Shown in pieces: positions 11,612 to 44,158 of a stretch of DNA of 50,029 bases. The stretch is from a virus (lineage: Duplodnaviria; Caudoviricetes): the IMG/VR virus record IMGVR_UViG_3300033067_001279, positions 1-50,029 of that record, one strand, 5' to 3'. The first letter of the stretch is position 1; each line of letters opens with the position of its first letter. The position numbers and the translations under genes are program-made. A model generated the notes under the pieces. That model had not been told where the DNA came from, made no database searches, and saw only the letters and a program-made list of their open reading frames with translations.

Positions 11612-11697
11612 CTGCGACAATCTGCGCAATCGTTTTCCGTTGCTCTGATCACAGTTTTCTAGGCATGCTGTCAGCGCCACAACACGCAAAAGGAGGC
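11612..11697 (+). promoter_or_regulatory. Divergent control region; putative promoter for the recombination operon
   Basis: CGTTTTCCG-TTGCTC-N18-CATGCT resembles the early cassettes (GGTTTTNCC-TTGCA); AAAAGGAGG RBS. Confidence 0.5.
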
Positions 11698-11703
11698 ACA
11701 CGG

Positions 11704-12705: not shown

Positions 12706-12802
12706 CCGTCCGGAGCACTACCGCCCGTCGATCAGTTGGACGTTAAACTAAAGGGGCGTGACAACCGGGAACAGACCGGCACTCAACCACAGGAGAAAAG
12801 CA

Positions 12803-20466: not shown

Positions 20467-21267
20467 TCATGGTCCCCATGCGGCGCAGGTCATACGAGCT
20501 GCGCTGGATGATGATAAGGTGGTAGTCAAAGTTGCAGAAGCACTGGACGAAATTCCGGTGACGAGAGCGCCATTGGCTTGCGCGGTGCCGACCGTCTGAT
20601 TGCCGACGAGGGTCGGCGTGCCGACGTTCGAGGTGAACCCGATGGTGGGCGCGGTCGCCGGCGTATATTCCGCGCCCACGATGACGCCGCCAGATGATGC
20701 CGAGAAGGCGCTGGATGCCAGCGAGGTGGTTGAACCACTAGATGCAAAACCTCCGCCGGTCGGCGTAGAGCTAGACGGGTAAACCGAGTAGACGTAGCAG
20801 ACGAAAGCTGTCCCGGCGCCGCTAAGAGTAACAGACACCGTGCCAGACACAGTTGAAGCGTCCGCCAGATAATATGTAGATTGGCCGCCCGCGCTCCCGG
20901 TCTGCGTCGAACCAGATACGGCGGTGGCAGACGTGCCCCCGATAGTGACGGAAGAAACCGTCCTGGTTGTGGAGTTCAGCCAGCAGAAGCAGGCAACAAG
21001 GACGCGCTTGGCGTCAGTGGTGCCGAAGGTGATCGTGCCGGTGGTGTAGGTCGTGGCACCCGTCGAGGAACCGTAGTTGCCGTTGTAGCTGGCCGCGGGC
21101 GTGCCGGCGGCAGCCTTGCCCGGCAGCATGCCCATGGTGAGCGGCATGGCCAGCAGCACCTTCTTGCTCTCGGCCCGGATGATCGCAGGCTTCGGCACGA
21201 CGAGGGCCGGGGTCTGCGGCACCATGAGCGCAGGGATCACGGCGGCGGCGAGGAGCGACTTCATCAT
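20467..21267 (-). CDS. Tail-fibre-associated Ser/Thr/Gly-rich beta protein
   Basis: Coupled downstream of the tail fibre; beta-strand-rich composition. Confidence 0.65.
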   Translation of the reverse strand: MMKSLLAAAVIPALMVPQTPALVVPKPAIIRAESKKVLLAMPLTMGMLPGKAAAGTPAASYNGNYGSSTGATTYTTGTITFGTTDAKRVLVACFCWLNSTTRTVSSVTIGGTSATAVSGSTQTGSAGGQSTYYLADASTVSGTVSVTLSGAGTAFVCYVYSVYPSSSTPTGGGFASSGSTTSLASSAFSASSGGVIVGAEYTPATAPTIGFTSNVGTPTLVGNQTVGTAQANGALVTGISSSASATLTTTLSSSSAARMTCAAWGP

Positions 21268-23180
21268 GCGATGTCACCAATCAATAGCCAAGTGTCGGTC
21301 GCGCGCTTGTAGAGGGTCGCACCCGAATACTGGCCGGTGAGCTTGAACTTGGAGCTCGAGGACTGCAGCGTGATTCCGGTCGTCACCAGCGTCACTTGGG
21401 CCGAGCCGAGCTGGACGATGTCGATCCTCGTTCCGACCGGGAAGGCGACCGAGGCATTGGTCGGGATCGTCAGGTTGACGCTTGCGCCGGTGACATTGAT
21501 CGAGACCAGCTTTCCGGCGTCGGTCAGGGCCAGCGTATAGGCAGCTGTCTGGGCGTTCTCGGCTTCCGTGGCCACCGTCGCCACGACATTGGCCGTCGTT
21601 GCGATCTGGGTCGTGTTCGTGTTGGCGGCCGCGGTGGGCGCAGCGGGCGTGCCGGTGAAGGTGGGGCTGGCCAGCGGCGCATAGGAGCCAAGGTCGGTCT
21701 GGGTGGCAAGCTGGACGGTGGTGCCGTTGAGGCGGGCGAAGACCGCGGCCGTCGTTGTCCAGAAATCGCCGTTGGCCGGGGCCGTAGGAGCAGCGCCATG
21801 GGGAAGGTTGAAACCCGCACCGCCCGCAGCGGACGCCGCAGTGGTGGCCTTGCCGGTGAAGGTGGGCGAGGCAACAGGAGCGCGGGAGGTGTCGGTCGGG
21901 TGAACGTGGTCCTGCCGGGCAAAGCGCGTCGAGGTGCCAACGGTCGCCGTTCCGTCCATGACGGGAGAAGCACTGCCAGCCTGCGCCAGCACAAAGGCGG
22001 TGGTGGCAAGCTGGGTCGTGTTGGTGTCGACCGCAGCGGTGGGCGCCGCCGGGGTGCCGGTGAAGGTGGGCGAGGCAAGGGGTGCGAGCTGCACCGTCGT
22101 GCCGTTGACGCGCCCGAAGAAGCCACCCGTTGTCGACCAGAAATCGCCATTGACCGGCGATGTCGGAGCAGCACCGTGCGGAACATTCAGACCCGCGCCG
22201 CCCGTGGCCGAGGCAACTGTCGTCACGTTTCCGGTGAATGTCGCGCCGGTGAGGTTGGCGTAGGAGTTGGTGTCGACCGCCCACACGCCGCCGCTGCGCC
22301 GCAGGAGGCCGTTCGTCGTGAGAGCGGCAATGGTGTCGAGGTCGGCATCCCACGCCTGCACGGTCGAGCCGATGGCCGCCGAGGTCAGCAGCGCCGAGAG
22401 CAGCGTGCCGCCGTCCGCGATGAGCTTTCCGGTGGCCCCGCTAAAGATCGCCACGCGGCCGTTGACGGCGCCGGCCGGGCCGACGACATCGCCAGTTCCG
22501 GAACCGGCCGCGCCCTGGAGATTGCCCTGGAGGGTCCAGGTCGTGGTGCCGGTCTTTTTGTAATAATCGCTGTTGCTGGTGTTGATATAGAAATCGTTGA
22601 CTGCCCCCAGGCCGCCGGCCGGAGCGCCGGTTCCGGAGTACCAAAGCGAGCCGCTGGTGCCGTTGTTGCCGGCGATGCCCTGGAGATTGCCTTGCAGCGT
22701 CCAGGTCGAAACGCCGGTTTTCTTGTAGTAGTCGCTGTTGGTCGTGTTGATGTAAAAGTCATTGACCGAGCCGAGGCCGCCAGCCGGGGCGCCCGCTCCA
22801 GAAAGCCAGGTCGCGCCGTTGGCGCCGGCGGTGCCCTGGCCGAGGCCGCCGACGATATGCACCTCCGTGCCGTCATAGCGCATCAGGATGTCGAGGCCGA
22901 TCGTGATGTCACCCGAGGCCATCGCCACGCCGCCGGCTTTCTTGAGCGCCTTGGTGCCCGTCACGCCGGAGATCGTGATGGTCATCGGCCCGGTGTTGCC
23001 GGCCGTGGCGCGCCAGCCATAAAACTGGTCGGTATTCCAGTCGGTCTGGGCCGGGTAGGCGGTGCACGTTATGTCGTTGGTGCCGCCCGTTTGGGTGAGG
23101 GCCACGATGGTGGCCACGTCCCCGGAGACGGGGATCCCGGACACCGCGCCGGTGAGCCTATCGGTGATTGTGCTCGACAT
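21264..23180 (-). CDS. Tail fibre protein
   Basis: T/G/A-rich; PLASPTFTGTPAAPT repeats; duplicated GAPAGGLGxVNDFYINT modules; C-terminal YTLALTDAGKL...IPTNASVAFPVGT...WLLIGDI domain. Confidence 0.85.
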   Translation of the reverse strand: MSSTITDRLTGAVSGIPVSGDVATIVALTQTGGTNDITCTAYPAQTDWNTDQFYGWRATAGNTGPMTITISGVTGTKALKKAGGVAMASGDITIGLDILMRYDGTEVHIVGGLGQGTAGANGATWLSGAGAPAGGLGSVNDFYINTTNSDYYKKTGVSTWTLQGNLQGIAGNNGTSGSLWYSGTGAPAGGLGAVNDFYINTSNSDYYKKTGTTTWTLQGNLQGAAGSGTGDVVGPAGAVNGRVAIFSGATGKLIADGGTLLSALLTSAAIGSTVQAWDADLDTIAALTTNGLLRRSGGVWAVDTNSYANLTGATFTGNVTTVASATGGAGLNVPHGAAPTSPVNGDFWSTTGGFFGRVNGTTVQLAPLASPTFTGTPAAPTAAVDTNTTQLATTAFVLAQAGSASPVMDGTATVGTSTRFARQDHVHPTDTSRAPVASPTFTGKATTAASAAGGAGFNLPHGAAPTAPANGDFWTTTAAVFARLNGTTVQLATQTDLGSYAPLASPTFTGTPAAPTAAANTNTTQIATTANVVATVATEAENAQTAAYTLALTDAGKLVSINVTGASVNLTIPTNASVAFPVGTRIDIVQLGSAQVTLVTTGITLQSSSSKFKLTGQYSGATLYKRATDTWLLIGDIA

Positions 23181-23182
23181 GC

Positions 23183-26100
23183 TCAGTCCTCCATCCCGGG
23201 AAGCAGATCGGAGAAATCTGCGTCTGCCCCGTCTTGCAATACCCTACTTTTCACCTCGGGCCAAACCTCCTGCACGGCATGCGCGTTATACACTTTGCGC
23301 TTGTGGTAGCGTGCCAGAAGTTCCTCGCCCAGGGCGGGTGACAGTGTGCCGATATCCTGGATCAATCCGTCAGCATCCATTGGCTTTTTCTGCTCCCAGC
23401 CCTTGATCCCGGTGGTGATCAGGGCGTTGCGCGCCTCGACCATCGAGAGCCGGGCGAGGAGCTCCTGGGCGCCAAGCCGCTGGTCGGGCGTCAGGGTGAT
23501 CTTTTCCGGGTCGTCCTTGGGGCTTTCGATTCGGCTGACATCATTGCCGGCGATCTCCTTGCGGAGGGCGGAAATGGCGGCGATCGCATCCTTGGCCCGG
23601 CGCATCGGGTGGAGGCGTTCCACCTTCGCATCAAAATTGCCGGTGAGTAGGGCATAGGCCTTGAGGTTTTCGTTCTTGCTCTCGAGGAAAGTGTTGGCCG
23701 CCGCGGCGCCCTGGCTGTCGAGAATGTCCTTATAGGTGTTGGCAGTCTGGGCCATGGGCCCGGTCTGCTCGGACATCTGATCCCAGAACTGGCGGCTCGA
23801 GACGGCGCCCGAAGTCGCCTGCTTGATGAACCGCCGGCTCAGGGCATTGGTGGCCGTCTCGAGAACGCCGCGCTCCTGGGCGCGATCGACCGAGGCCGAG
23901 GTGATGATCTGCCCCCAGGACGCACCAAATCCCTGAATGGCGTGGTCGATCATGGCCGGGCTCATGTTGGTGGCATAGCCCATCGCCTTGGCGATCTCTG
24001 AGGTCCGGGCGGTGTACTGGCGCCAGGGCTCAAAGCCGGCGATGTCCTGGCCGACGATCGGCTGCCCGAACGAGTCGACGTTGTGGGCGAGCTCATAGCC
24101 CACCTTGAAGATCGGCACTTCGGTGGGCGGCGCGGTCACGTCATAGAGGCCGGAGACAAAGCTCTCGAGGGCGAGCGGGTTGCGCTTGTATACGGCATCG
24201 AATCCGCGCTCGAACAGGTTGGCCACAAAGCCCAGCTCGAACGGCTTGGGAATGGCCACCCAGTTGCCGGGGCTGAGCTTTACCATCCAGTGCGTGGCGC
24301 GCACATAATCCGAGATCTCCTCATATTCCGGATCATCACGATAGAGGGCGGTGAGGCCGAGGCTAAAGACGCCCATGGCGGTGAGCGCCGTCCAGGCCTT
24401 GGCCGACTTGCCAAGGTTGGCGCGGTCCCTGGCCGAGAGCGGCCGGCCGGCGCGGTGGCTCACGTAAGGGGTGATCGCCTTACGAATGGCGCCCTCCGCG
24501 GTGAGCGTGCGCACCGCCTTGTCGAGGCCCTGGACCGAAGCATTGAGGAAGGTCACCAGGCGCCGCGCGGCGTGGGTCTTCGAGCCATGCCGGCCGAAGT
24601 CGATATAGTCGCGGGCCTGGTAGGCTGCCTCGACGGCCGCCTCGAACGGTGTCAGTCCGTCTTTCTTGGCGCGCTCGAAGCTGTTGCGGAACACCGCCAG
24701 GCGGGTGCCGGTTTCGCTGAGCTCGGTGAGCTCGGCAAAGCCGCGGATCGAGGCGAAGCGGCGCACCGCATAGCCGTTCTTGCGCAGCGCATCGAGGTCG
24801 CGCATCACCCGGCCCTTGTCGAGGGCCGCGACATTGGCGCCGCCCATGATGCCGCCGAACGTGTTGTAGATCTGCGAGATCTCGTGCTGCATGATTTCAT
24901 CGCGGAGGCCGCGGGCGCCCGAGACAAAGGGAATGAAATCCATGCCGGTGAGCACCCAGGCCGACACCTGATCGCGGATGTAGTTGGCCAGGATGAACGG
25001 CGGCGCGGTGGTGATCGAGTAGCGCAGCATGCTCGAGGGCAGCGCCAGCACCGAGGTAAAGAGATCCCGGGACTCCTTGTTCATGCCGGTCATTGAGTCG
25101 TAGAGCTGGCGGCCGAAGTCGCCATCCGCCAGGCGCAGGGCTTGCTTTTTGCCATTGCGCCACACGTAGATGATCGGCTCGCCCTTCTCGTTGATCTCGC
25201 CGGCCTTGAAGACGGTGGCCTTGGCGTTGTCCCCGAGGAGATCGTCCACCAGGGTGGTGAGCGCGTCGATATCGCCGGGGTTGATGCCGGCCTCCTTGCC
25301 GGCGGCGCGGAGCACATCGCCCACGTCGACCGAGCTGCCCTTGAGCTGGGTCGAGGGGATCCGCTCCGCGATGGCGCCGCTCCCAGGGCCCGCCATCTTG
25401 GCGAGATCATCGAGGGCCTTGAACACATCGTTGCGCCGCATCAGCGCATTGAAGTGGTAGGCGTCGGTCATCATGCTTTCGATCGGGTTGATGATCGAAC
25501 GTTTGGACCCCTTGAAGGCCTTCACGATCGAGTTGCGCAACGTGGCATTGGGCTCGCGGCCCACCTCGCGATCAAGGTCCGAAAGGTCGCGCATGAAAGG
25601 CACGTAGTCGGGGCGCTGGATCAGGTCGTCGTAAAGCTCCTGGGTGAGGAATCCGCTCTCGTACTTCTTGCGCAGCATGTTGCGTTGCCACTCGTAGACC
25701 ATATCGGCGGCCTCGGTGAACTCCGGGTGTGCCAGCTCGAGCTCGGCAATCGCCGTCTGATAATCGCCCTTGGTGAACTTGCCAGGGGTGTTGGGGATCT
25801 CGCCGGCCAGGAAGCGATCATACTCGCGCACCGCGCGGCGTGAGATCAGGTAGGAGGCGAAGTCAGCCACGCGGCGATCGTCCCAGGAGGTCCAGCTATC
25901 GCCCAGGGCTTTCTCGAGGGCGTCGGACAGGCCAGGGCCTTCCGGCGTCACGCCATGATAGGGGACCACGCCATGCACCAGGTCGATGTGGCCGGCCGAG
26001 TAAGAGTCCTGGAGCAGGCGCGCCAGGCGGTAAGGATCCTGGGCGGAGGTGATGTCGAGGGCCCGACCGGTGCGCTTCTCGTAGATCTTGGCGAGCTCAT

Positions 26101-29100
26101 CCACCGCCTTATTGATCGGGTTCAGCTTGTCGAGCAGCGAGGTGTAGGCCGTCGAGGCATAGGTGGCGATCGTGGCGCGGACGCCGTTTGCCTGGGCTTC
26201 CTTGATGAGCTCGACGGCCGCCGAGTTGCGACGGCTCGAGACGACATCGCCGGCAATCGCCGCCTGCGACGGCGCCGTGACGTGCTGGCGGTAGGCCTCG
26301 GCAATCGCCTGGATGCTGGCGAGCTGCTCGGGGGCCTTGGTCCGGAGCATGTCCTCGAATGCCTTGGTGAACTGCGGCGCGGAGTTGCGGGCATAGGCCG
26401 GCGTGGTCACATAGAAACGGAACCACTCGGCAAAGCCTTCCGAGAGCTGTTGCTTGGGATCCGCACCCGCATAGGCGAGCGGCTCGAGCTCCTTGGCATG
26501 CGCCAGCTTGATGGTGTTCAGCGAGCGGCCCCACTGGGTTTCCATCGAGTGGGCGGTTTCGTGGGTCTGCGTCTCGAAGTCCGACACCTCGCGGAGGCGG
26601 ATCACACCTTGGCCGCGGTCATACTGGCCGGCGATGCGGCCGCCACCCTTGGGGGCCCTGGCAAGTCGGCCCTGGCGGACGGGCGCGCCGGTGAGCTTCT
26701 GGAGCTCGGCGCTGATGTCCTCGAGGCGGGGTGCCAGCTCCGGCGTAGCCTGGCCGGCAACCTGGACCGTGCCGGCCTGGGGCCGGTTGGTCGGCATGGT
26801 GGACTGTTGCGGCCGCCGGGCGAGGGCTATTCCTTCGGTGGGGTTACCCCCGTCTTGGCGAACAGCTCCTTGAACATCTTGTCCGTCGAGCGGTTTTCGA
26901 TCTCCTCCAAATCCAGAAAGCCCTTCGAGGGCGCCGGTGTCGTCGGTGACTTGAGGGGGATCTCCGGGGCGGCCGTTTGCGTCGATTTCGGCATAGCGAT
27001 CTGCAACTCCTTCTTGTCTGAGAACTCGGTAAGTCTCGGCCGGTGAAACGCCAACAGCCTTGACATATTCCGGGTTGATGATCCGCCCGGTCTTGATAAA
27101 TCGCCCGATCATGCGGCGGAACGCATTGTCGTAAGTCACCGCAATATTGATCAGGTCGACCTTGTAGCCGAAGGCCTGGAGGTTCTTGACCAGCTTGCGG
27201 ATCCCATCGGGGTTATGGCCCACCTTCGGGACCACGATGTTCGAGCCATCCGTGAGCATCCGCGCCAAGACGGCGTTCGCCATGTCGGCGCTTTCCTCAT
27301 GGACCGCATTGGCCCCGATGCCGCCATGGAACTCCGGAATTACCTTCTTGGCTTCATCGGGATCGACAATGGCCGCATAGCGATCGGCTGCGAAGCGATC
27401 TGCAAAGGTCGATTTGCCGGCAGCGGGCGGGCCCAGGACAATGGTAGCGCGGCGCTCATGCTTGACCGGGCCCTTGGTGGAGAAGGCGTTTGCCCCTTCA
27501 ACCAACCGATCAATGGCAGGATCGAAGCCATGGACCGGACCATCCGGGAAGTCATATACGCGGGACTGCTTCCACGCATCAGACATGAAGCCTGGTTGTT
27601 CATTCGTCAAGGGGATTGCGTCAAGGCGCCGCACCGCGTCTTGCACAAAGGGGTGCGCGGCGATTTCGTCAATCGGCGCACCATTGGCGAGCATGTCGGG
27701 CAGCCCGGTGCCGATCGCGTCGGTCTTGAACGCAAAGCCCTTTTGATCGGCCTCGGATCCGAACAAGCCGACATCCATGCCCTTTTGCGGCCGCTTGGCG
27801 CGGAGCGGCGCCTCGGCCCGGCGCTCGGCCAGGCTCTTGTTGGAGATCTGCTCCGCCCCGGGAATGACCATCTGCGGCTTGTTGTCGGCGCCCGGCTCGA
27901 GGATCGGGGCCTTTGGCTGGCTCATCAGGGTTTCGCGGCCCTTGTCGGTCAGGAAATAGCGAGTCACGCGATTGCCGGTCGCGGTGTAGCTTTCGCGGCC
28001 CTCGATCCAGCCCATGCGGGTGGCTTGGTTGATCTGGTCTCCAAGGATGTTATTCGGCGCGCCCAACTTGCCGCTCGCCAGTGAAAGGAGACGTTCCATT
28101 TGGGGCGTCATGGCAGGCGCCGCGGGGGCGCCCGGCTCATAAGTCGGACCGTTCACCTCGGCCTGGAACGCCGGATCTTTCTGGAGGGTGCTCGAGATCT
28201 GCTGACTGCGGGTCGCCCCTTCGGCCGGCTTGCCATAGAGCGCCGAACGCAGAATGTTGCCATCGGCCGCCACATAGGGCGGATCTATGCCCTCCTCGGC
28301 CAGGATCTTGAGGCGGCCCTCGATCTTGCTGTCCGCGACGGCGCCAAGGAAATGGATCCGGGTCGGCTTGGCCTCTTTCACGAACGCCCGGAACTCCTCC
28401 GCGCTGATGGCCTTTTCGTTGGAGGGGATCCCCGCGATGAAATCCGTCCCGAGAATGTTGCGCGCCTCGGCATAGGCCTGGGCGAGCGTCTTCTCGCCCT
28501 TCTGGAGCGGTACGATGAGGTTTTCAGCGAACGGGCGGAGATCGTCCGCATGCTGACGGAGGAGCGCGAGGGAAGCGGCCTGGTCGCCAATGATGTCGGG
28601 GGCCACGAAGACCGGCGGCGGATAGCTGTCCTCGGCCTGGTTGGCGTCCATGATGGCCAGGCGCAGCTCGTTGTATTTGTCGAGCACCGCCTGGAAATCC
28701 ATGTCCTTGAGCTGCGGCGGCGCGGCACCCTCGGCCCGGAACATATCGCCCAGGTCCGTGAGATAGCGGCCTTGCTCGCGCATGTTGCGGCGGAACAGGC
28801 CGAAAGCCCCGGAGTCGACGAACACCCGGGCATGCCAGTCGAGGATCCGCTGGGCCAGGCGCGGAATGTTGGCGTCCGAAAGCTCCTGCACGTCGATGCC
28901 AATGCCGCGCGTGTCAATGCCGCCGAAGGTGTGGGCGCCGGCCTCGAAGTCATTCAGCCGCGACATGCCGGAGGCGAAGCGCACGGCGCGCTCCTTGAGC
29001 TGGCGCACCTGGCCGTCGACGCCCTGGGGAACGGTCGGCTTGACGCCGTTGGATCGCACCAGGGTGGCGAGCTCGCTCCGGGATCCGTCCATGTGGCCGG

Positions 29101-32100
29101 TGGCGTTGCCCTGGGCGTCGAGGTGGGTGACCTGGTAGAGGCTCGGATCTCGCAGCGATTGCGTGACGATGATCGTCCGGCCGTCCTCGGTCTTACCCTC
29201 GAATGCGCCGGTGCGCTCGATCGCGCTCTCGATGTCGGCCTGGAAGGCGGCCATTTCCTGCCGGCGCTGGCGGATCTGCTCCTGAAAGGCCTTCATGCGC
29301 TCGGTGGTCGCCGGCGGCGGCATCACGTCGAACAGGCTGGGGCCCTTGTCAACCGGCGGCCGGCGGGCAAAGGCGATGTTGGGCTCGGTCGGATCCCAGG
29401 TGCCGCGGTTGTTGACGCTCTTGATCTGGGTAGGATCGAACGCGACAACCTCGCTGGGAAGGCGATGTGTGTAATTCTTGTTGAACACATCGCCAGCAAA
29501 GATGCCGTCATATCCGAGCTTCCGCACCTCCGGGATTATGTTCTTGCGAAACTCATCCAGAAGCGTGCTGCCATGGAGCCCGCCGTGCGAATCCCAGGCT
29601 GCGGCGTCCTCGCCGCGCACGGCGGTTTCCTCTGCGAACAGATCATTTTGGAGCTCCAAGGCGGTCTTGCCGCCTGTGATCCGCTTCATCACCTCATCGA
29701 CTTGCGGCGCGATGTGGTTTTGATAGAGCTCCTTGGGGGCCATGCCGGGATGTTCTTTTTCGGCAATTGCCTTGAAGTGAGCCTTCAATGCCGTCGCGAA
29801 ATTTTCGACAATCTCATCCGGCTGAGAGGTTTTCCCATGGATCCAAAGAGGATTTTGGATGCTGACGTAGAGCTCCATGGTGTTCGCGGCGGTGCCACCA
29901 CGTTGCAGGGAATAGGCATCAGCAAGGTATCGCTGCGGCGTCAAGTAGAATCCATCGGCTCCGAAAAATCCCTTGTCGAACCGCTTTCCTGCACCCTGCT
30001 TAAACTCGGTGAAGGCAGTCGGGCCGGTGCCGTGATAGATCACCAGCGGGTCGCCGTTCTCGTCCACCAGCTTGGAATGACCGAACCACCGCTTGAAGGC
30101 CGGTGAGTCGGTGGGGCCAGCGTCCGTCAGTCTTGCGGCGATCCCCGTTTCGTCCGGGCGTCCAACTGGGCCAGGGCGACCCCCGTCCGGACCAATTGTC
30201 TTGCTCGCTGTGCGGAGCTCGTCGAGAAAATCTCGGACAACGGCCGGACGGGAGTCTCCGTCTTTAAGCCGCTTGGCGGCAGCGGCGAGGGCGTCGGCAA
30301 TGGGGCCTTTGCGGCGGGCTTGGGCTTGGAGGGTGGCGAGGATCGCGGCATCTTGGGTTGCCCTTTCTGCATTGGTTGCGGTGGCCAGAGTGTTGCCGGC
30401 GCCGGTAAGGCGGGCCTCCTCCTTGACCAGGGTGGCGAAGGCGGCGCGGTCCTTGCGGATGGCGGTCGCCGCGGCGCTCAAGACCTGGGCGCGCTCCTTG
30501 AAAAGGATCTGCGTCACCTCGGCCGAGCCGAACATGTCCTCCATGGTCGATTGCACGGCCGGCGCGTCGAGCGCATCGCGGATCATGCTCTCGGCCTCGA
30601 TGGCATTGTCCGGCTGTTCCTTGGCCAGGAGATCGAGGAGCTGGGCGTGGGTCTTTGGATCCGGCGCCAGGCGGCCCACCTGGGCAGCGTAGCCGGCCGG
30701 AACTTTCTTGTTGATAACCATCCCGAAGGCGTCATCAGACAGGTTGGCGAGGCCCTGGGCATCGCGCACCAGGGCGGAGGTCGGCGGCAGATCAACCGCC
30801 ATATCCGGCCGCGAGCGGAGGATCTTGGCCGCGTCGATGGCGTTGCCGGTGCCTTCCGCGATGTTCTTGGCCGCGGCGATGGCGCGCGCATCCTCTGAGG
30901 TGACGCCATCGGCTTCCCGGAGGACCACGGCGCGGATCTTCGGCTCCTGGCCTTCCTTCTCGAGGCGCGAGGCCAGGCCATGGCGCTGGTGGCCATCGGC
31001 AATATAGAAATCGCCCTTCAGATCCTCCCACACCAGCGTGACGCCGGACTTGATCGGATCCCATTTCTTCACGCCCTTGAGGCGATCGGTAACCCCGGCC
31101 TCGTCGCCACCTTCCTTGAACTGGAAGCGCTTGGCGTCAACCTTGAGATCCGAGGGGTTGAACTGGCGCTCGGTGCGATCGACCGGCAGCGGCGCGGGCG
31201 GGGGCTCGACGGCGGCGGGTGGGGTCTGCTCGGCGCCGGGCAGCGGGGCAACACGTTGCGCGGACTTCTTGGCGATCGCGTCGGCCCGCGCGCGGAGATC
31301 CGCCGCATAGGCCAGTTCCTCGGCTTTGCGGCGCTCGAGATCAGCCTTGATCGTCTCATATTTCGGGCTGTCCTTCGAGACGCCGGGCTCGGTTCCCGTA
31401 GCCTCGGCATTGCGCTGGGCGCGGGTGGCAATATAGTCCGCCAGATCGGCGCGCCCATACATCTCGGCGGCGGCCATACCCTCGACGGTCGATCGGTTTC
31501 CGGCAGCATGGATTGGCGCGACAACCGCATCGCGGATTGCCTGCTCGATCCCGCCCACATTAGAGCGGTTGCCATTGGCGGCCACGGCTGCATCCGCTTC
31601 GGCGCGGAGCTTCTCCTCGAGGGCGGCGAACTGTGTCGGCGCCGTGCCCTGCTGCACCACGAAATCGCCCACAGGGTTGCCGGGCAGCGGAGCGGCGGGG
31701 CCGCGCTCCCTCGAGATCTGCGCGGTGAGATCCTCGGCTTTCCCGCCGGTGATGCCCGGCACGAAACCGCGCTTCGGCTTCACAATGCCGATCGAGGCCA
31801 TGGGGTCGGCCGAGTCCTCGAAGGCCTTCACCTCCGGGCTGTTGATGCCGAATTGATCGACGGCCTGGGCGAGCGCGTCGGCGTGGGTATCGCCCACAAA
31901 GAACTTGCCGCCGATCTGCACGGCCGGCTTGCTCTCGCTGCCCCTGAATTTCGAGGGGTCGATCGAGAGATCCGGCTTGACCGGCTCGACGGGCGGCGTC
32001 TCATTGGTGAGGCCGCCCTGGGTTTCGGTCGGCGCCTGGGGGATCTCGCCGGGCTTGTTGGCGTTGAGGTAGTCGTCGACCTTGGCGATCTGCTCGGGCG

Positions 32101-33031
32101 TCATTTCCCGAATGCCGACCACCTCACCGAACAGCGCCTCTTGGGCGGTGTTGAGGTCGCCCGGGCTATGGGTGGCCAGGAGATATTCAGGAGTTGGCGG
32201 TGCCAGGCCTTCGGGAGCAGGCGGCGGCGGTTCAGCGGCGGGCGGGGCAGCCGCTTCCGGCGGCGGCGTGGGGCCAGGCTGCGGCGGCGGGCCGGCCGGC
32301 GTGCGCTCGGCGTGGCGGGCCTCCTCACGTGCAGCGCGGCCCTCGAGGTAGCCGAACGGCATGCCGAAGCCAAAGCCGGCAGCGGCATCGGTGGCCAGGG
32401 ATCCCCAGTCGACCGAATCACGCAGGCCGGAGCCCCACTCCTCGGCCTGGACGATCGCGTTGATACTGGCATTCATCGCCGCATTCGACACGCTCGAGTC
32501 AAGGAGCCGCGAGAACATCGGGTAGGCCATGCGCCATCCGGCCGTGCCGATCTCGGCCGCCGGGTTGAGCAGCGAGGCCGGATCTGCCAGGGCGCCGGCC
32601 ACCGAGCCCAGGATGGCGGCGGAATAATCGGCCGCCGAGCTCGAGGGTTTCATGGCGTCATATTGCGCTTGACGTTCCTGGCGCCGCGAAATCATCAGAT
32701 CCGCCGTGGCTTTGCCGGCCTCGGAGCCAATGCCCTGGCCGTTCACATAGCCTTGCTTGGCGCTCTGAATATCCTTGAGCTCGTCGACGCCCGGCGTTCC
32801 GAAATCCTGGGCGGCGTTGAAGTGCTGAACAAATCGCTCCTTCCAGGAGGTGTCGGCCTGCTCCATGCGCTGGGCCGGCTTGCGATCGGGCGCCTGGATA
32901 TACTGATCGAACGGGTTGGCCGGGGCCTGCGGCGTCACCTGGACGCCCATTTCCGGCTGATAGGGCGGCGGCTTGATGTCCTCCGCATCCGCGGGAGCCG
33001 GGGCGATCGCTGAGCCGGGCATGGTAACCAT
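23183..33031 (-). CDS. Giant polyvalent internal virion/ejection protein (~3,280 aa)
   Basis: Third internal-virion gene after tail tubular B; ATG 33031 overlaps the upstream TAA, AGGAG RBS. Domains by motif: ParB-like (YIADGHQR, ~30400-31170); ART (YHGT/GFYLT/EVVAFDPTQIKS, ~29375-30110); TGT/DpdA-like (VFVDSGAF/PDIIGD/IHFLG, ~28235-28985); wHTH (~27930-28110); zeta-like kinase (GPPAAGKST, ~26980-27460); HETAH metallopeptidase (~26280-26720); LPD38-like (IPKPFELG, ~23850-24400). Confidence 0.9.
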   Translation of the reverse strand: MVTMPGSAIAPAPADAEDIKPPPYQPEMGVQVTPQAPANPFDQYIQAPDRKPAQRMEQADTSWKERFVQHFNAAQDFGTPGVDELKDIQSAKQGYVNGQGIGSEAGKATADLMISRRQERQAQYDAMKPSSSAADYSAAILGSVAGALADPASLLNPAAEIGTAGWRMAYPMFSRLLDSSVSNAAMNASINAIVQAEEWGSGLRDSVDWGSLATDAAAGFGFGMPFGYLEGRAAREEARHAERTPAGPPPQPGPTPPPEAAAPPAAEPPPPAPEGLAPPTPEYLLATHSPGDLNTAQEALFGEVVGIREMTPEQIAKVDDYLNANKPGEIPQAPTETQGGLTNETPPVEPVKPDLSIDPSKFRGSESKPAVQIGGKFFVGDTHADALAQAVDQFGINSPEVKAFEDSADPMASIGIVKPKRGFVPGITGGKAEDLTAQISRERGPAAPLPGNPVGDFVVQQGTAPTQFAALEEKLRAEADAAVAANGNRSNVGGIEQAIRDAVVAPIHAAGNRSTVEGMAAAEMYGRADLADYIATRAQRNAEATGTEPGVSKDSPKYETIKADLERRKAEELAYAADLRARADAIAKKSAQRVAPLPGAEQTPPAAVEPPPAPLPVDRTERQFNPSDLKVDAKRFQFKEGGDEAGVTDRLKGVKKWDPIKSGVTLVWEDLKGDFYIADGHQRHGLASRLEKEGQEPKIRAVVLREADGVTSEDARAIAAAKNIAEGTGNAIDAAKILRSRPDMAVDLPPTSALVRDAQGLANLSDDAFGMVINKKVPAGYAAQVGRLAPDPKTHAQLLDLLAKEQPDNAIEAESMIRDALDAPAVQSTMEDMFGSAEVTQILFKERAQVLSAAATAIRKDRAAFATLVKEEARLTGAGNTLATATNAERATQDAAILATLQAQARRKGPIADALAAAAKRLKDGDSRPAVVRDFLDELRTASKTIGPDGGRPGPVGRPDETGIAARLTDAGPTDSPAFKRWFGHSKLVDENGDPLVIYHGTGPTAFTEFKQGAGKRFDKGFFGADGFYLTPQRYLADAYSLQRGGTAANTMELYVSIQNPLWIHGKTSQPDEIVENFATALKAHFKAIAEKEHPGMAPKELYQNHIAPQVDEVMKRITGGKTALELQNDLFAEETAVRGEDAAAWDSHGGLHGSTLLDEFRKNIIPEVRKLGYDGIFAGDVFNKNYTHRLPSEVVAFDPTQIKSVNNRGTWDPTEPNIAFARRPPVDKGPSLFDVMPPPATTERMKAFQEQIRQRRQEMAAFQADIESAIERTGAFEGKTEDGRTIIVTQSLRDPSLYQVTHLDAQGNATGHMDGSRSELATLVRSNGVKPTVPQGVDGQVRQLKERAVRFASGMSRLNDFEAGAHTFGGIDTRGIGIDVQELSDANIPRLAQRILDWHARVFVDSGAFGLFRRNMREQGRYLTDLGDMFRAEGAAPPQLKDMDFQAVLDKYNELRLAIMDANQAEDSYPPPVFVAPDIIGDQAASLALLRQHADDLRPFAENLIVPLQKGEKTLAQAYAEARNILGTDFIAGIPSNEKAISAEEFRAFVKEAKPTRIHFLGAVADSKIEGRLKILAEEGIDPPYVAADGNILRSALYGKPAEGATRSQQISSTLQKDPAFQAEVNGPTYEPGAPAAPAMTPQMERLLSLASGKLGAPNNILGDQINQATRMGWIEGRESYTATGNRVTRYFLTDKGRETLMSQPKAPILEPGADNKPQMVIPGAEQISNKSLAERRAEAPLRAKRPQKGMDVGLFGSEADQKGFAFKTDAIGTGLPDMLANGAPIDEIAAHPFVQDAVRRLDAIPLTNEQPGFMSDAWKQSRVYDFPDGPVHGFDPAIDRLVEGANAFSTKGPVKHERRATIVLGPPAAGKSTFADRFAADRYAAIVDPDEAKKVIPEFHGGIGANAVHEESADMANAVLARMLTDGSNIVVPKVGHNPDGIRKLVKNLQAFGYKVDLINIAVTYDNAFRRMIGRFIKTGRIINPEYVKAVGVSPAETYRVLRQEGVADRYAEIDANGRPGDPPQVTDDTGALEGLSGFGGDRKPLDGQDVQGAVRQDGGNPTEGIALARRPQQSTMPTNRPQAGTVQVAGQATPELAPRLEDISAELQKLTGAPVRQGRLARAPKGGGRIAGQYDRGQGVIRLREVSDFETQTHETAHSMETQWGRSLNTIKLAHAKELEPLAYAGADPKQQLSEGFAEWFRFYVTTPAYARNSAPQFTKAFEDMLRTKAPEQLASIQAIAEAYRQHVTAPSQAAIAGDVVSSRRNSAAVELIKEAQANGVRATIATYASTAYTSLLDKLNPINKAVDELAKIYEKRTGRALDITSAQDPYRLARLLQDSYSAGHIDLVHGVVPYHGVTPEGPGLSDALEKALGDSWTSWDDRRVADFASYLISRRAVREYDRFLAGEIPNTPGKFTKGDYQTAIAELELAHPEFTEAADMVYEWQRNMLRKKYESGFLTQELYDDLIQRPDYVPFMRDLSDLDREVGREPNATLRNSIVKAFKGSKRSIINPIESMMTDAYHFNALMRRNDVFKALDDLAKMAGPGSGAIAERIPSTQLKGSSVDVGDVLRAAGKEAGINPGDIDALTTLVDDLLGDNAKATVFKAGEINEKGEPIIYVWRNGKKQALRLADGDFGRQLYDSMTGMNKESRDLFTSVLALPSSMLRYSITTAPPFILANYIRDQVSAWVLTGMDFIPFVSGARGLRDEIMQHEISQIYNTFGGIMGGANVAALDKGRVMRDLDALRKNGYAVRRFASIRGFAELTELSETGTRLAVFRNSFERAKKDGLTPFEAAVEAAYQARDYIDFGRHGSKTHAARRLVTFLNASVQGLDKAVRTLTAEGAIRKAITPYVSHRAGRPLSARDRANLGKSAKAWTALTAMGVFSLGLTALYRDDPEYEEISDYVRATHWMVKLSPGNWVAIPKPFELGFVANLFERGFDAVYKRNPLALESFVSGLYDVTAPPTEVPIFKVGYELAHNVDSFGQPIVGQDIAGFEPWRQYTARTSEIAKAMGYATNMSPAMIDHAIQGFGASWGQIITSASVDRAQERGVLETATNALSRRFIKQATSGAVSSRQFWDQMSEQTGPMAQTANTYKDILDSQGAAAANTFLESKNENLKAYALLTGNFDAKVERLHPMRRAKDAIAAISALRKEIAGNDVSRIESPKDDPEKITLTPDQRLGAQELLARLSMVEARNALITTGIKGWEQKKPMDADGLIQDIGTLSPALGEELLARYHKRKVYNAHAVQEVWPEVKSRVLQDGADADFSDLLPGMED
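26827..26994 (-). CDS. Nested out-of-frame 55-aa gene at the end of the zeta-like kinase domain
   Basis: AAGGAG 12 nt before ATG 26994; MPKSTQTAAPEIPLKSPTTPAPSKGFLDLEEIENRSTDKMFKELFAKTGVTPPKE with G/C-ending codons while the host frame switches to A/T-ending codons. Confidence 0.65.
   Translation of the reverse strand: MPKSTQTAAPEIPLKSPTTPAPSKGFLDLEEIENRSTDKMFKELFAKTGVTPPKE
30127..30351 (-). CDS. Nested out-of-frame 74-aa gene at the end of the ParB-like domain
   Basis: AAAGGG 9 nt before ATG 30351; MPRSSPPSKPKPAAKAP...RPLSEIFSTSSAQRARQLVRTGVALAQLDARTKRGSPQD; host frame uses atypical codons here (AGG, CAA, CTT, AAA, CGA, TTT, AGA). Confidence 0.55.
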   Translation of the reverse strand: MPRSSPPSKPKPAAKAPLPTPSPLPPSGLKTETPVRPLSEIFSTSSAQRARQLVRTGVALAQLDARTKRGSPQD

Positions 33032-35445
33032 TACTGCACTCCTGCGGGGGTCTTGGGGAGCCATTTCTCAGCCTCGCCGGTGCCAAATCGCTGGTCGAAG
33101 GCATCGGCCAGGGAGGGATTGGCGATGAGAGCGCGGACGGAAGCCTCGTCAACGAACGGCCAGCCACCCGGCGGCGGGCGGAGTTTCATCGGCACGGACA
33201 TGGTTCCGCTCCGGATCGGCGGAACGCGGGCAGGCTGGGCCGGGCGCTGGGGCTGGGCAGGCGCGGCGGGGGCGGCCGCGGGGGTAGTAGCGGCCGGGGG
33301 CAACTCGCCGTTCATGGCCTTCTCTGCGGTGCTGGCCTCGACGGCGTGCTCGAGGCCCTGGGTTTCGGCCACGGTCGGCGTGATGCCCTGGGCGGTCTTG
33401 CGGATAATGCCGGCGGTGATGTCTCCAACCTGCTTATCCCGGACCGATTCCGAAATGGCGAAGGCGAGCACCTGTTGCGCATAGGGCCCATAGATCTCGT
33501 CGACGTGGTTGATGGTGTCGCGCACCGCCGTCTCGGTGGCCTGGCGAATGGCCTTGCGGGCGGCCTGGCGCTCCTCGGGGGTCTTGGCCTTCGACATCGC
33601 CATGACCAGGCGGGCATCCGATTCGTCGATGATCTTCTCCACCGGCTTGATGATCTCGCGGGCATCGGTGCGGGTGATCGGCTGCTGGATGCCGTCCGGG
33701 ATCCCCACTTCGGCCTGGGCGGCGAGGCGCGCCTTGATCAAGGCCTGGATGCTGTCCGGCTTGGTCGGGTCATAGGTTTCCTTGGCCTTCTTGACGATGG
33801 GCGAGTCCTCGACCGACTTGGCCGGATCCTTGAGGCGGAGATCCTGGAGCTGGTTGGCGCGCTTTTCGGCCGCGTCATAGATCTCTTGTTGGCTCGAGAA
33901 GTCCGTCGCGCCGGCCGCCGGCTTGAGGGTCTTGAGGTGCTCCTCGATCTGGTCGTTGTTCATCGTCTCCATGGCGGTCACCGCGCCATAGGTGGCCACC
34001 GCGGTCTTGCGCTTCTCGAGCCACTTGGCCGCGTCATCCTCGCCCAGAGTGTTGATGATCGTCTGGGGATCCAGCTTGGTGCCCTGGCCGGTCGCCTTGA
34101 TCTGGGCAATGTCGTCGTCCATGGCGGATTTGACGTTGTAGCGATCGAGCGCTGTGGTTTCGCGCTGCTGTTTCTGGCGCTGGGCGATCTCGCTATCCGC
34201 GTTTGTCTGGAGGGCGAGTCGATCGGTGCCGTCGAGCACCTTGTAATAATCCGGCTGGTTGAGGCTGGCGATCTGGTCGCCGCCGCCAGCGATGATGTCG
34301 GCCTCCTCGTTGCGCCGGCGGGCGTTGATCCCGCCGTTGTCCTTCGAGAGGCCGCGCACCGCTTCCGAGATCTGCGCGATGTCGCCGCTCTTGATGGCAT
34401 TCACCACGCGGCCAGGCAGAGAGCCGTAGTTGTAAGCTACCGAAGTCAGGGCCGCCTTGGCAGCCGGCGGCAGCGAGGCCCAGGGGCCAGGGCCAACGTC
34501 CTGGACAATGCCGGACTGAAATTCACCAATGCGGCGCTGGAGGTCGCGCTCGGCATCGGCGCGCGTCACGGTCATGCCGGGCTTGACCGGGATCACCTGT
34601 CCATCCGCGGTGGTGATGGTGTCGGATCCGAAGCCAACCCGATATTTGTCCTTGTCGAAATAGGCGGTGGTGCGAAAGCCCTCTTGCTTGCGGATCAGGC
34701 CCTCGACGCCGCCCTGTCCACCCTCGAGCCAGGCGGCCGCGGCATTGGGGTCGTTCTGGATGTCCTGATCAATTCTCAGCTTGGCGTATTTCTGGGCCAG
34801 GCCGCGGCGCAGCTCGACGCCCTTGGCCGGGTCAATGACGCCGGTGGCAACCATGTTGTCGATGTTCGCCCGCGCCTGGCCCAGGATCTTGTCGGCGGTC
34901 TTCGGGTCCGTGCCAGGGGCGGCGGCCGCGCTGATCGAGTCGTCGAGGCCATTGATTGCGGTGGTGACGCGGAGATCCTTGTCGATGCCCTGGGCGCGGT
35001 TCTGGATGGTGAGGGCGCCCTGGGTTACATCGTCCTGGGTTTCAGCCTCGAAGCGGGCCCGGAGCGACGGCGAGCGGATCAGCGATGCGGAGGCCTGGCG
35101 GTGCTTCTCGATGTTGCCCTGGAAGGTCTTCCCCCAGTTGGCATAATCGGGGTTGTTCTCGAGCTGGTACTGGTTTTCCTCGGTGAGCCGGCGCTTGTTC
35201 CAATCGGTGCGGGCGCGGGTGAGGTCGAGGGCATCCCCCTGTTCCTTCTGGCGGATGTCGATCTGCCGCTGGTTGTCGATGTTCGCCTGGTTTTCCTGGG
35301 TGATCGTCTCGCCCATCCTGGCCACCGCACCGCCCAGGGCACGGCTGGCCTCGCCCACCATGTCCTGCTGCTGGCGCGGGATGGCCTGGGATTGCGGGAG
35401 GTTCATGCCGAGGCTGTCGGCGGTGGGCATCCTCGGCATGATCAA
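33031..35445 (-). CDS. Internal virion/ejection protein with a GH24 lysozyme domain
   Basis: LIRKQEGFRTTAYFD...VGFGS...VTRADAERDL...ALTSVAYNYG...NARRRNEEA within a helical protein. Confidence 0.85.
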   Translation of the reverse strand: MIMPRMPTADSLGMNLPQSQAIPRQQQDMVGEASRALGGAVARMGETITQENQANIDNQRQIDIRQKEQGDALDLTRARTDWNKRRLTEENQYQLENNPDYANWGKTFQGNIEKHRQASASLIRSPSLRARFEAETQDDVTQGALTIQNRAQGIDKDLRVTTAINGLDDSISAAAAPGTDPKTADKILGQARANIDNMVATGVIDPAKGVELRRGLAQKYAKLRIDQDIQNDPNAAAAWLEGGQGGVEGLIRKQEGFRTTAYFDKDKYRVGFGSDTITTADGQVIPVKPGMTVTRADAERDLQRRIGEFQSGIVQDVGPGPWASLPPAAKAALTSVAYNYGSLPGRVVNAIKSGDIAQISEAVRGLSKDNGGINARRRNEEADIIAGGGDQIASLNQPDYYKVLDGTDRLALQTNADSEIAQRQKQQRETTALDRYNVKSAMDDDIAQIKATGQGTKLDPQTIINTLGEDDAAKWLEKRKTAVATYGAVTAMETMNNDQIEEHLKTLKPAAGATDFSSQQEIYDAAEKRANQLQDLRLKDPAKSVEDSPIVKKAKETYDPTKPDSIQALIKARLAAQAEVGIPDGIQQPITRTDAREIIKPVEKIIDESDARLVMAMSKAKTPEERQAARKAIRQATETAVRDTINHVDEIYGPYAQQVLAFAISESVRDKQVGDITAGIIRKTAQGITPTVAETQGLEHAVEASTAEKAMNGELPPAATTPAAAPAAPAQPQRPAQPARVPPIRSGTMSVPMKLRPPPGGWPFVDEASVRALIANPSLADAFDQRFGTGEAEKWLPKTPAGVQ

Positions 35446-35990
35446 GCTCCCATGGTGTAGTCGTAGGCGTTCTTGGCGCGCGCCGCTTTCGAGAAGTCGG
35501 AATAGATCGAGCCGCCGGTGCTGAGCAGCGTCGTGCCGGCGCCGATATAGCCGGCAAGCCTGGCGTTCTGGCCGGCGATCTTGGTCTGGCCGGCCTCGGC
35601 GTAGAGATCATGACGGGCCTGGGTGCCGTTGTAGAGATCTGTCAGGGCGTTGTATTCGCCTCGGCGCTCGATCCCGGACATGATGTCGGTCACCGTGTCG
35701 CCGGTGCCGCCGCCGGAAGCCGCCGCCACCGCCATGGTGCGGCCCAGGGCAGCGCGCTTCTGCTGGCGGTCCTCGATGGCCTTGCGCTGGGCGATGGCAA
35801 GTTCCTGGTCGCCCTTGGTCTTCATCGCCTTGGCCTGGGCGTCGGCATAATTAGCCTGTTGGATGCCGCCGATCACCTGGCCGCCGGCCGAGGCCAATCC
35901 TCCCGCCACCGTCAGGGCCGTGCCGATCGTCCCGGCGTTCGCTGCCATGAAGGCGCCGATTCCGCCGATCGCTGCTAGGATGGGTGCCAT
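35442..35990 (-). CDS. Small internal virion/ejection protein (T7 gp14-like position)
   Basis: G/A-rich hydrophobic ends flanking a Q/A-rich helix. Confidence 0.75.
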   Translation of the reverse strand: MAPILAAIGGIGAFMAANAGTIGTALTVAGGLASAGGQVIGGIQQANYADAQAKAMKTKGDQELAIAQRKAIEDRQQKRAALGRTMAVAAASGGGTGDTVTDIMSGIERRGEYNALTDLYNGTQARHDLYAEAGQTKIAGQNARLAGYIGAGTTLLSTGGSIYSDFSKAARAKNAYDYTMGA

Positions 35991-36348
35991 AGCTATAGAC
36001 CCTTTCGCCGCCGATGAGTTCATTCGTGGGGGAAAAGCCCAGCCGCTCCAGCCACCGCCCCGCCCCGTTTTCGTGTGTCGACTCTATCGCATACAACTCA
36101 CCCAATTGCGAGACGCCCACCTCCACCAACCTCTGGGCGGTCCGGTGCATGAACACCGGAAATCGCCTCAGCGTCTCGGTGATCTCGAGGCTCAGGAACG
36201 GCCGGCCGTTCACCCCGATGACGATCGCCGCGGCGCCGATCTCCTGGCCCTCGAGCTCGGCCACCACGCCGGCGAAGCGCGGCACGATGTAGCGCGAGAA
36301 TTTCACCATGTCGCGGGCCCGCATGAGGCGGAGCTTAGGCGCGCTCAT
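35851..36348 (-). CDS. GNAT-like virion assembly protein (T7 gp13-like position)
   Basis: AGRWLERLGF motif; follows tail tubular B; C-terminus reads ~46 codons into the next gene. Confidence 0.65.
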   Translation of the reverse strand: MSAPKLRLMRARDMVKFSRYIVPRFAGVVAELEGQEIGAAAIVIGVNGRPFLSLEITETLRRFPVFMHRTAQRLVEVGVSQLGELYAIESTHENGAGRWLERLGFSPTNELIGGERVYSYGTHPSSDRRNRRLHGSERRDDRHGPDGGGRIGLGRRPGDRRHPTG

Positions 36349-43881: not shown

Positions 43882-44158
43882 CGGTTTTCTCCTGGGGTGG
43901 CAATGGACGGTCGATCGCGTTGAGGATGCGCGTTCCGACGAACCGCTTGCCCTCTGCAAAATCCGACGCGCGGGATCCGTCCGGCCCGGGTCGGAAGCTC
44001 ATGTCATAGGTGCACGCGAACTTGGTGAGGATGGTCACCAGGGCGATTTTCTGCTGGGCGGCCGAGGCCACGCCGGCAGCCAGGGCTTTGAAGGCGACAA
44101 CCTCGGCGGTGCCGAGCTCGGGGGCTTCCCAGGGATTGACCGGCGGCTTGTACGTCAC
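43790..44158 (-). CDS. Bbp19-like head protein between portal and scaffold
   Basis: SFRPG...DFAEGKRFVG motif; GTGA coupling to the portal gene. Confidence 0.75.
   Translation of the reverse strand: MTYKPPVNPWEAPELGTAEVVAFKALAAGVASAAQQKIALVTILTKFACTYDMSFRPGPDGSRASDFAEGKRFVGTRILNAIDRPLPPQEKTDGTSPEAPRPDRRNPKPSTRRNKPARPSAE

Follow-up and report, generated by a model that had tools for sequence, protein, structure and literature searches.

A zinc-less DpdA-like domain, a candidate guanine base-exchange enzyme, within a giant polyvalent protein of a T7-like podovirus

IMG/VR record IMGVR_UViG_3300033067_001279, from a virus assigned to the Duplodnaviria and Caudoviricetes, was analyzed over its entire length of 50,029 bp, referred to here as the window (GC 64%; CheckV completeness 95%). 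Its minus strand carries a giant open reading frame (ORF), P0001 (23183..33064), which encodes a protein of 3,293 amino acids (aa), and residues ~1358-1625 of this protein (28190..28993, minus strand) make up a conserved domain that, judged by profile comparison, is very probably homologous to the DpdA superfamily. DpdA is the signature enzyme of 7-deazaguanine DNA modification (PMC10516641), and the phage, viral, and bacterial DpdA subfamilies described in the accounts cited here are free-standing genes. The interpretation favored here, held at about even confidence on the combined evidence, is that the segment is an active, zinc-less branch of the DpdA/tRNA-guanine transglycosylase (TGT) superfamily, carried as cargo of a polyvalent virion protein, which would probably exchange or excise guanine using 7-deazaguanines made by the host. 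The chemistry and the superfamily are known, the subfamily and its architecture are new, and the mode of delivery is probably new as well.

The domain is defined by a series of short motifs, and the five that the initial annotation had reported were all recovered in one frame of the minus-strand ORF: VFVDSGAF (aa 1414-1421; 28802..28825), PDIIGD(Q) (aa 1489-1494; 28583..28600), IVPLQKG (aa 1517-1523; 28496..28516), IHFLG (aa 1570-1574; 28343..28357), and ADGN (aa 1600-1603; 28256..28267). A GIPS loop (aa 1545-1548; 28421..28432) lies between the third and the fourth of these. The family consensus also includes an upstream FxSGxSR motif, with the window copy at aa 1363-1369, so the limits first drawn at 28235..28985 were nearly right and were extended to aa ~1358-1625 (28190..28993).

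The domain belongs to a large family. When aa 1380-1625 were searched with phmmer against 1.84 billion cluster representatives, 609 homologues were found at E<=1e-3, 230 at <=1e-10, and 40 at <=1e-30. Conservation was assessed in an alignment of 97 rows, comprising the window domain and 96 full-length domains cut from the best 150 of the 609 matches. Nine residues are invariant in all 97 rows, namely D1417, G1419, P1489, D1490, P1547, H1571, L1573, G1574, and D1601, and these include three Asp. Position 1421 is F in 87 rows and Y in 8, Q1495 and R1606 are each kept in 95, Q1521 is Q in 86, P in 8, and H in 3, and G1523 is G in 96. With 609 homologues and nine residues invariant in 97 of 97 domains, the motifs are not a product of chance.

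The relation of this family to DpdA is seen in profile-profile comparisons made with hhalign. A profile of 29 family sequences (A1) and a second family profile of 97 sequences were aligned with profiles of 17 DUF6610/DpdA4 sequences, which are relatives of HVTV1_69 (A2), and of 12 DpdA1 sequences of the phage 9g type (A3). A1 matched DpdA4 with a probability of 92.3% (E 5.6e-7) over 126 columns that begin at the Asp of PDIIGD and run as far as ADGN; in this alignment HxLG falls on HLLGG and SADxN on SIDGN. The same profile matched DpdA1 with a probability of 87.2% (E 3.9e-6) over 91 columns that take in the DSGAF strand, the PD..GD motif, and PLQ.G, pairing DSGAF with DSGAF and PDxxGD with LDGIGD. 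The 97-sequence profile gave 90.0% (E 1.7e-6) against DpdA1, 69.1% (E 4.4e-5) against DpdA4, and 2.7% (E 0.017) against nine bacterial Tgt sequences, and reversed-template negative controls run with it gave E-values of 0.19-0.58. The DpdA4 signal comes from the 17-sequence profile only, as alignment of A1 with the single HVTV1_69 sequence gave an uninformative probability of 2%. Weak matches to the Pfam model of DUF6610 (PF20314) were also found in 3 of the 29 family members, the best of them, P0146, scoring 23 bits (E 7.1e-5) against a cut-off of 27 bits.

A calibration with the same shallow alignments gave E 0.003 for DpdA1 against Tgt, E 0.084 for DpdA4 against Tgt, and E 0.38 for DpdA4 against DpdA1, so the value of 0.017 obtained for the window family against Tgt is not out of line with those of accepted DpdA families. 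By this measure, the window family bridges DpdA1 and DpdA4 better than those two match each other, and a link of this kind helps to order the superfamily.

Of the two relatives, DpdA1 of phage 9g (PMC6884629) is similar in its motifs, with IFLDSGAF in place of VFVDSGAF and LDGIGD in place of PDIIGD, followed by a polar-Gly motif, and neither family matches the Pfam TGT model. Among 120 listed DpdA1 (9g-type) relatives (P0171-P0290), none has a precomputed Pfam domain, and the curated models miss this tested branch too. DpdA1 differs in being a free-standing early or middle gene of ~310 aa beside folE/queD/queC/queE, with conserved Cys and His residues and ~100 aa beyond the last Asp, whereas the window domain has ~270 aa and no cysteine and lies inside a 3,293-aa late structural protein of a genome that lacks the pathway. 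The C-terminal halves of the two did not align.

DpdA4 corresponds to DUF6610, and HHpred of HVTV1_69 is reported to return PF20314 at 100% and PF01702 at 92.5% (PMC10516641). According to the same account, DpdA4 is specific to archaeal viruses, and its own activity is not demonstrated there (PMC10516641). Halovirus HVTV-1 gp69 shares with the window domain the order of PD-type Asp, strand-loop, HxLG, and SxDxN; in the profile alignment the GIPS loop, with its invariant P1547, falls on GYSVP of DUF6610 and IHFLG on HLLGG. DpdA4 differs in being free-standing or fused to GNAT, in its place beside the preQ1 pathway (the HVTV1_69 gene adjoins folE, queE, queD, queC, and queF), and in an N-terminal part of another kind without DSGAF; the window's own domain has no PF20314 match even at E<=10. 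Five DUF6610/DpdA4 relatives (P0164-P0168) carry a GNAT acetyltransferase domain in the same chain, matching the GNAT-TGT fusions mentioned for BREX-related systems (PMC12839542).

The conserved residues can be set beside the Salmonella Montevideo DpdA active site, in which Asp95 is the general acid/base and Asp256 the nucleophile, with D95A and D256A both abolishing guanine exchange, and in which Phe99 and Leu236 sandwich the base and Asp130 and His181 read its Watson-Crick edge (PMC10164549). All three Asp are reported as invariant in TGT and DpdA, and a structural Zn site is conserved (PMC10164549). D1417 and F1421, aligned with DSGAF of DpdA1, correspond to the acid/base Asp and the aromatic residue at +4 (D95/F99 type) and are the candidate general acid/base and base-stacking aromatic. 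D1490 is the candidate Asp for recognition of the base (D130 type); it aligns with LDGIGD of DpdA1 and with D190, which is invariant in DUF6610. Q1521-G1523 of IVPLQKG, aligned with CFHAGE of DpdA1, hold the place of the polar-Gly pair that is H181-G182 in DpdA and Q-G, within Q-G-G, in bacterial Tgt. D1601, aligned with the invariant D287 of DUF6610 in SIDGN, is the candidate nucleophile (D256 type). The equivalence of D1490 and of Q1521-G1523 comes from profile alignment only. In a weak full-length alignment with Tgt (E 0.017, probability 2.7%), DSGAF falls opposite DSGGF and PLQkG opposite IvQGG; around D1601 this alignment is out of register and of low confidence.

By alignment, D1417/F1421, D1490, Q1521-G1523, and D1601 fit together as a candidate catalytic set, and the window domain is like bacterial DpdA (PDB 7UI4) and Tgt (PF01702) in having an Asp for acid/base catalysis in DSGxF with an aromatic four positions on, together with one Asp to read the base and another to act as nucleophile. 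The motif order proposed earlier for the segment (DSGxF, catalytic D, HxLG, D) agrees with the S. Montevideo DpdA set in the three Asp and the +4 aromatic, and departs from it in the zinc site, which is absent.

If the domain acts as a DpdA-type enzyme, D1601 would attack C1′ of a guanine nucleotide, the nucleic acid being most likely double-stranded DNA, D1417 would protonate the leaving guanine, F1421 would stack on the flipped base, and D1490 together with Q1521/G1523 would read the Watson-Crick edge of that base. The covalent Asp1601-sugar intermediate could then be resolved by a 7-deazaguanine (preQ0 or preQ1), or by water to leave an abasic site. Because the phage has no synthesis genes, the 7-deazaguanine base would be drawn from the host queuosine pathway. 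On balance, an activity in nucleic-acid base exchange or excision is rather likely.

In this way the phage genome might be shielded from restriction, whether it is modified as it enters the cell or, late in infection, as progeny DNA not yet packaged; late action on progeny DNA is an equal possibility because the gene lies in a late operon and DpdA acts after replication. Insertion of 7-deazaguanines specifically into phage DNA is proposed tentatively, at somewhat less than even confidence. A bolder and doubtful version is that a large clade of zinc-less DpdA-like transglycosylases was recruited as cargo of ejected polyvalent virion proteins; a few enzyme copies made beforehand would then exchange guanines in the genome that is entering, or in the tRNA or DNA of the host, with host preQ0 or preQ1 before phage gene expression begins. 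Phage genome, progeny DNA, and host tRNA or DNA are targets that sequence data do not separate.

The supply of the modified base bears directly on this mechanism. Six-frame family searches of the whole record found no QueC, QueD/PTPS, FolE, radical SAM, TGT, DpdA (PF23859), or DUF6610, which bears out the earlier statement that the genome has no deazaguanine pathway. Such an absence is not unusual: phages with DpdA only form the largest phage group, with 76 members, which "could rely on preQ0 synthesized by the host" (PMC6884629). When 9g dpdA was expressed alone in E. coli, dPreQ0 was reported at ~0.3% of plasmid G (PMC6884629).

Pathway genes were also sought around homologues of the domain. 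In 43 viral records, QueC was above cut-off in one (G025) and below threshold in one more, and QueD was found in 1 of 43; among the 24 viral records at least 90% complete, QueC was above cut-off in none. When six-frame ORFs were searched locally by phmmer with 13 Que proteins as queries, these turned up at 1 of 64 viral and bacterial loci. For metagenomes, 80 loci were kept of 229 relatives from a basal-clade alignment scan, and Que genes were found in the flanks of none of the 80, of which 35 span at least 8 kb.

At the one linked locus (viral contig L027 of record G025; operon at 7775-10708, plus strand), genes for DNA polymerase A, QueD, QueC, FolE, and a radical-SAM QueE-like protein are followed by P0146, then by two small ORFs and an N6 methylase. 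P0146 is a free-standing family member of 261 aa that keeps all the invariant residues and stands directly after the que operon, the usual position of DpdA, and no other TGT or DpdA match was found in the 40 kb of that record that were searched. P0146 is itself a DpdA candidate, and of a type missed by both PF01702 and PF23859. A scan for close relatives of P0146 returned its own contig only and no further operon-linked members.

The domain is a mobile module, with neighbors that differ among its giant homologues. Architecture was counted in the best 150 of the 609 phmmer matches, where 67 proteins exceed 1,000 aa, up to 7,235 aa, and the rest include free-standing proteins of ~260-400 aa. Relatives of the ADP-ribosyltransferase (ART)-like segments of the window protein co-occur in 16 of these 67 giants, and those of its ParB-like segment in 2 (phmmer E<1e-3). 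At the 43 IMG/VR loci, the domain lies in frames >1,000 aa in 23 and in shorter frames in 20. At 21 bacterial genome loci, from Microvirga, Azohydromonas, many Pseudomonas, Pseudoalteromonas, Neiella, and two metagenome-assembled genomes, it is always free-standing and of single-domain size (220-436 aa), and canonical Tgt is also present in all 10 of the 10 bacterial genomes examined that bear a free-standing member.

In a quick tree, the window domain nests with giant proteins, with P0002 and then P0003 and P0004 (Shimodaira-Hasegawa-like approximate likelihood ratio test, SH-aLRT, 97); P0002 is 73% identical to it (74% by phmmer). In 50,697 GenBank phage records, tblastn found no match of the domain or of P0146, and blastn of positions 27000-31000 against phages gave two short matches only, both outside the DpdA-like domain. 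One free-standing Pseudomonas member (L053) has as neighbors a C5-methylase-like gene and weak helix-turn-helix (HTH)/LPD22 matches, and is uninformative.

P0001 is a polyvalent protein in the sense of PMC5512222, since it combines in one chain an ART-PolyVal ADP-ribosyltransferase domain (aa 1001-1219; 29408..30064, minus strand; Pfam PF18760, E 6.9e-19), a Zeta-toxin-type P-loop kinase domain (aa 1872-2025; 26990..27451, minus strand; PF06414, E 3.7e-14), and LPD38, a domain specific to phage polyvalent proteins (aa 2911-3059; 23888..24334, minus strand; PF18857, E 2.4e-30). One feature of such proteins, several unrelated effector domains in one very large chain, is thereby present. P0001 is like P1 DarB/DdrB and the N4 vRNAP-type giants in being a giant multi-domain chain among virion genes, with ART-PolyVal, Zeta toxin, LPD38, and a ParB-like region. 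It differs from described polyvalent proteins in its DpdA-like segment, which falls under no LPD or other Pfam model. TGT, queuine, deazaguanine, and TIM barrel have 0 mentions in the main text of PMC5512222. The literature searched gave no account of a TGT/DpdA-like domain within polyvalent or other virion proteins, although the supplementary tables of PMC5512222 and of the DpdA papers might list one.

The ORF is part of a T7-like podovirus structural module on the minus strand, extending from ~47.7 kb down to 21.3 kb. In order, the module comprises the terminase (46083-47669), portal (44155-45837), major capsid protein (40556-41419), tail tubular protein A (39037-39663), tail tubular protein B (36335-39037), a gp14-like internal virion protein (35442..36023; phrog_418, E 1.7e-21), an 804-aa protein with a phage lysozyme domain in gp15-like position (33031..35445), the giant ORF, and, directly downstream of it, a tail fiber gene (21264..23180; PHROG tail-fiber families). 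T7 has its ejected core protein gp16 in a gene order of this kind, and the giant ORF stands at the gp16 position. Its G+C content at third codon positions (GC3) is 0.81, like that of the record's other genes.

A compositional feature is also in keeping with ejection. P0001 has no cysteine anywhere in its 3,293 residues, compared with 0.47% pooled over 13 other phage proteins (P ~2e-7), and both internal virion proteins upstream of it are cysteine-free as well. This zero-Cys bias fits a protein that passes unfolded through the tail and the periplasm. Counted together, the three consecutive putative ejection proteins (193, 804, and 3,293 aa; 23183-36023, minus strand) have 0 Cys in 4,290 residues, and the eleven other phage proteins, which are the thirteen minus the two shorter ejection proteins, have ~0.56% Cys pooled.

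The C-terminal LPD38 module (23186-25267, minus strand) does have relatives in isolated phages, with 52 records matching at 25-28% identity by tblastn; these include Escherichia phages Pondi and PTXU04 and phages of Vibrio, Shewanella, Thalassomonas, Bacillus megaterium, and Pelagibacter. In Vibrio phage 1.211.A, the module ends a protein of 2,715 aa (L159:2578-10725, plus strand) encoded just upstream of fiber-like genes, and this protein is an N6-adenine DNA methylase by record annotation only. Polyvalent proteins are described as injected effectors with host targets, whose cargo includes DNA-modifying enzymes that protect DNA in cis, with the DarB methylase as a precedent for DNA-modifying virion cargo (PMC5512222). 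The DarB precedent and the LPD38-module methylase protein of Vibrio phage 1.211.A lend support to the suggestion that the window domain may provide the phage genome with cover against restriction.

Several lines of evidence weigh against the favored interpretation, and the first concern fold and family. Searches of Pfam, NCBIfam, and the PDB (phmmer) with the segment gave nothing useful, hmmsearch of the PDB with profile A1 gave chance-level rows only (a K+ channel at E 0.57 and an ERH-like protein at E 1.9), and six-frame genome searches with PF01702 (TGT), PF23859 (DpdA), and PF20314 (DUF6610) gave nothing at E<=10. Each hhalign match covers part of the domain only, with DpdA1 matching its N-terminal half and DpdA4 its C-terminal two thirds, and the probabilities of 69-92% include none above 95%. 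A language-model search with the domain was weak (recognition 1932, below 2300), and a DpdA-bearing cluster appeared only at rank 4, with 17% of its members carrying DpdA. A crude Chou-Fasman profile of the 97 sequences has about seven alternating strand-helix units, each conserved motif at a strand end, which is compatible with the presumed TGT-type (beta/alpha) barrel and does not discriminate it from other folds.

The structural Zn2+ site is missing from the family at large, as even the best Cys column is occupied by this residue in 6 of 97 domains, and 61 of the 97 have no Cys at all; in the window domain the site is absent because the whole protein has no cysteine. Bacterial DpdA requires the DpdB ATPase and ATP (PMC10164549), and a DpdB-type partner is not evident for the window domain. 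Unlike bacterial DpdA and Tgt, the domain therefore has no zinc site, no such partner, and no PF01702 or PF23859 match, and it is ~100-150 residues shorter. The TGT/DpdA kinship proposed in the initial annotation is carried by the hhalign matches to DpdA1 and DpdA4, with reversed controls far weaker, while the zinc site and any match to a curated model are lacking.

Other points of the same tendency come from genomic context. Linkage to deazaguanine synthesis genes was found at 1 of 144 homologue loci (43 viral, 21 bacterial, and 80 metagenomic), and P0146, at that locus, is a long-branch outlier (1.72) in a basal group of small proteins, far from the window clade in the quick tree. P0001 had been described as an injected protein, which agrees with its gp16-like gene position and its polyvalent-protein domains; it is probably packaged and ejected with the DNA, a step deduced from synteny only. 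Finally, the other recognized domains of the chain, ART and Zeta toxin, are host-directed effectors and fit a host target equally well.

This last point leads to an alternative in which the domain is itself a host-directed effector, applying DpdA-like chemistry to host tRNA anticodons (guanine/queuine) or to host DNA. If no base came in, the covalent intermediate would be hydrolyzed to leave abasic sites, and the outcome could be weakened translation or genome integrity in the host, or the disarming of defenses based on tRNA or DNA. ART-PolyVal and Zeta toxin belong to effector classes that modify the host, injection and action on host targets are described for polyvalent proteins (PMC5512222), tRNA is the ancestral TGT substrate, and deazaguanine genes stand beside family members at only the one locus mentioned above. 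However, the nearest detectable relatives are the DNA-acting DpdA1 and DpdA4 (E ~1e-6) rather than the tRNA-acting Tgt (0.017), the only gene neighborhood that is informative holds a DNA-modification operon, next to genes for a DNA polymerase and an N6 methylase, and a tRNA-binding accessory domain was not identified. A host-directed role is accordingly rated unlikely.

We consider it similarly improbable that the domain is a DpdA homologue with no 7-deazaguanine role, having instead another acceptor or chemistry, such as that of a glycosylase or of a transferase acting on another base, nucleotide, or small molecule, or being a non-catalytic DNA-binding barrel. Loss of the Zn subdomain, the Q found in 86 of 97 domains in place of the His of the DpdA H-G pair, and the lack of pathway linkage at 143 of 144 loci would all agree with such divergence, which has also been suggested as possible for singleton DpdAs (PMC6884629). 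The top neighbors in the language-model search were clusters with no name and one with the automatic name "T4 beta protein family"; the latter was rejected as an assignment, as PF14350 (Beta_protein) has no match to the genome at E<=10. A low-confidence alignment places Q at the equivalent site of bacterial Tgt as well. Strict conservation of the three Asp and the stacking aromatic speaks against a non-catalytic role and for retained double-displacement chemistry with a purine nucleotide as substrate.

That the DpdA/TGT resemblance is spurious, the motifs having converged in an unrelated alpha/beta fold such as a Rossmann-like hydrolase, would suit the partial hhalign matches at probabilities below 95% and the lack of matches to curated TGT/DpdA models or PDB chains, but it is held to be very unlikely. 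Against it, the two DpdA families, themselves independent, align in consistent order to complementary halves of the domain, and their E-values surpass those of the reversed controls by 4-5 orders; family members also match Pfam DUF6610 weakly, one member sits in a preQ0 operon, and DpdA1 has a near-identical DSGAF strand motif.

A fused DpdAB-like unit, raised as conceivable in the initial annotation, is a separate matter that concerns a ParB_N-like region of P0001 at aa ~620-820 (30605..31207, minus strand), which includes DGHQR (aa 690-694) and is regarded here as a lead only. A language-model feature search of the region gave ParB_N clusters for 22 of 30 named matches (score 0.94), and phrog_10691 and phrog_21 were its PHROG matches; Pfam and PDB sequence searches of aa 560-990 were negative. 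The fusion is unsupported, because the ParB-like region lies ~540 residues upstream of the DpdA-like domain, beyond the ART domain, because the two co-occur in just 2 of the 67 giant homologues, and because ParB is a hub domain of polyvalent proteins in general (PMC5512222). A DpdA-DpdB fusion was also rejected on the size of the 21 bacterial free-standing members, all of which are single-domain sized.

Whatever its substrate, the family is a further abundant DpdA-like branch, with 609 representatives, that the curated models tried do not detect. If the enzyme is active, DNA base exchange would join methylation as a pre-packaged tool against restriction, surveys of modified phage genomes would have overlooked many candidates, and a compact, cysteine-free, Zn-free transglycosylase of ~270 aa would be available for study. 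If the ejected-cargo proposal were true, this would be the first injected base-exchange enzyme, and 7-deazaguanine DNA modification would be far commoner in phages than pathway-based surveys suggest.

Some further features of P0001 and of the phage may be recorded. The stretch of aa ~1640-1730 (~27875-28147, minus strand), directly after the DpdA-like domain and a Pro/Ala linker, looks by eye like a winged helix-turn-helix and was unmatched in family searches. Relatives of the Y segment (aa 1626-1860), which contains this stretch, occur near the domain in five giant homologues, mostly upstream of it. HETAHS (aa 2168-2173; 26546..26563, minus strand), an HExxH motif, is a possible zincin peptidase site on motif evidence only, and no family match was found for aa 2036-2640 around it; it could mark a processing peptidase of the zincin type that is typical of polyvalent proteins. 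Elsewhere in the window, the phage also encodes a RecE-like PDDEXK and RecT recombination pair (11665-13705, plus strand) and a free-standing N6/N4 DNA methylase (4812-5972, minus strand; PF01555, E 7.9e-30).

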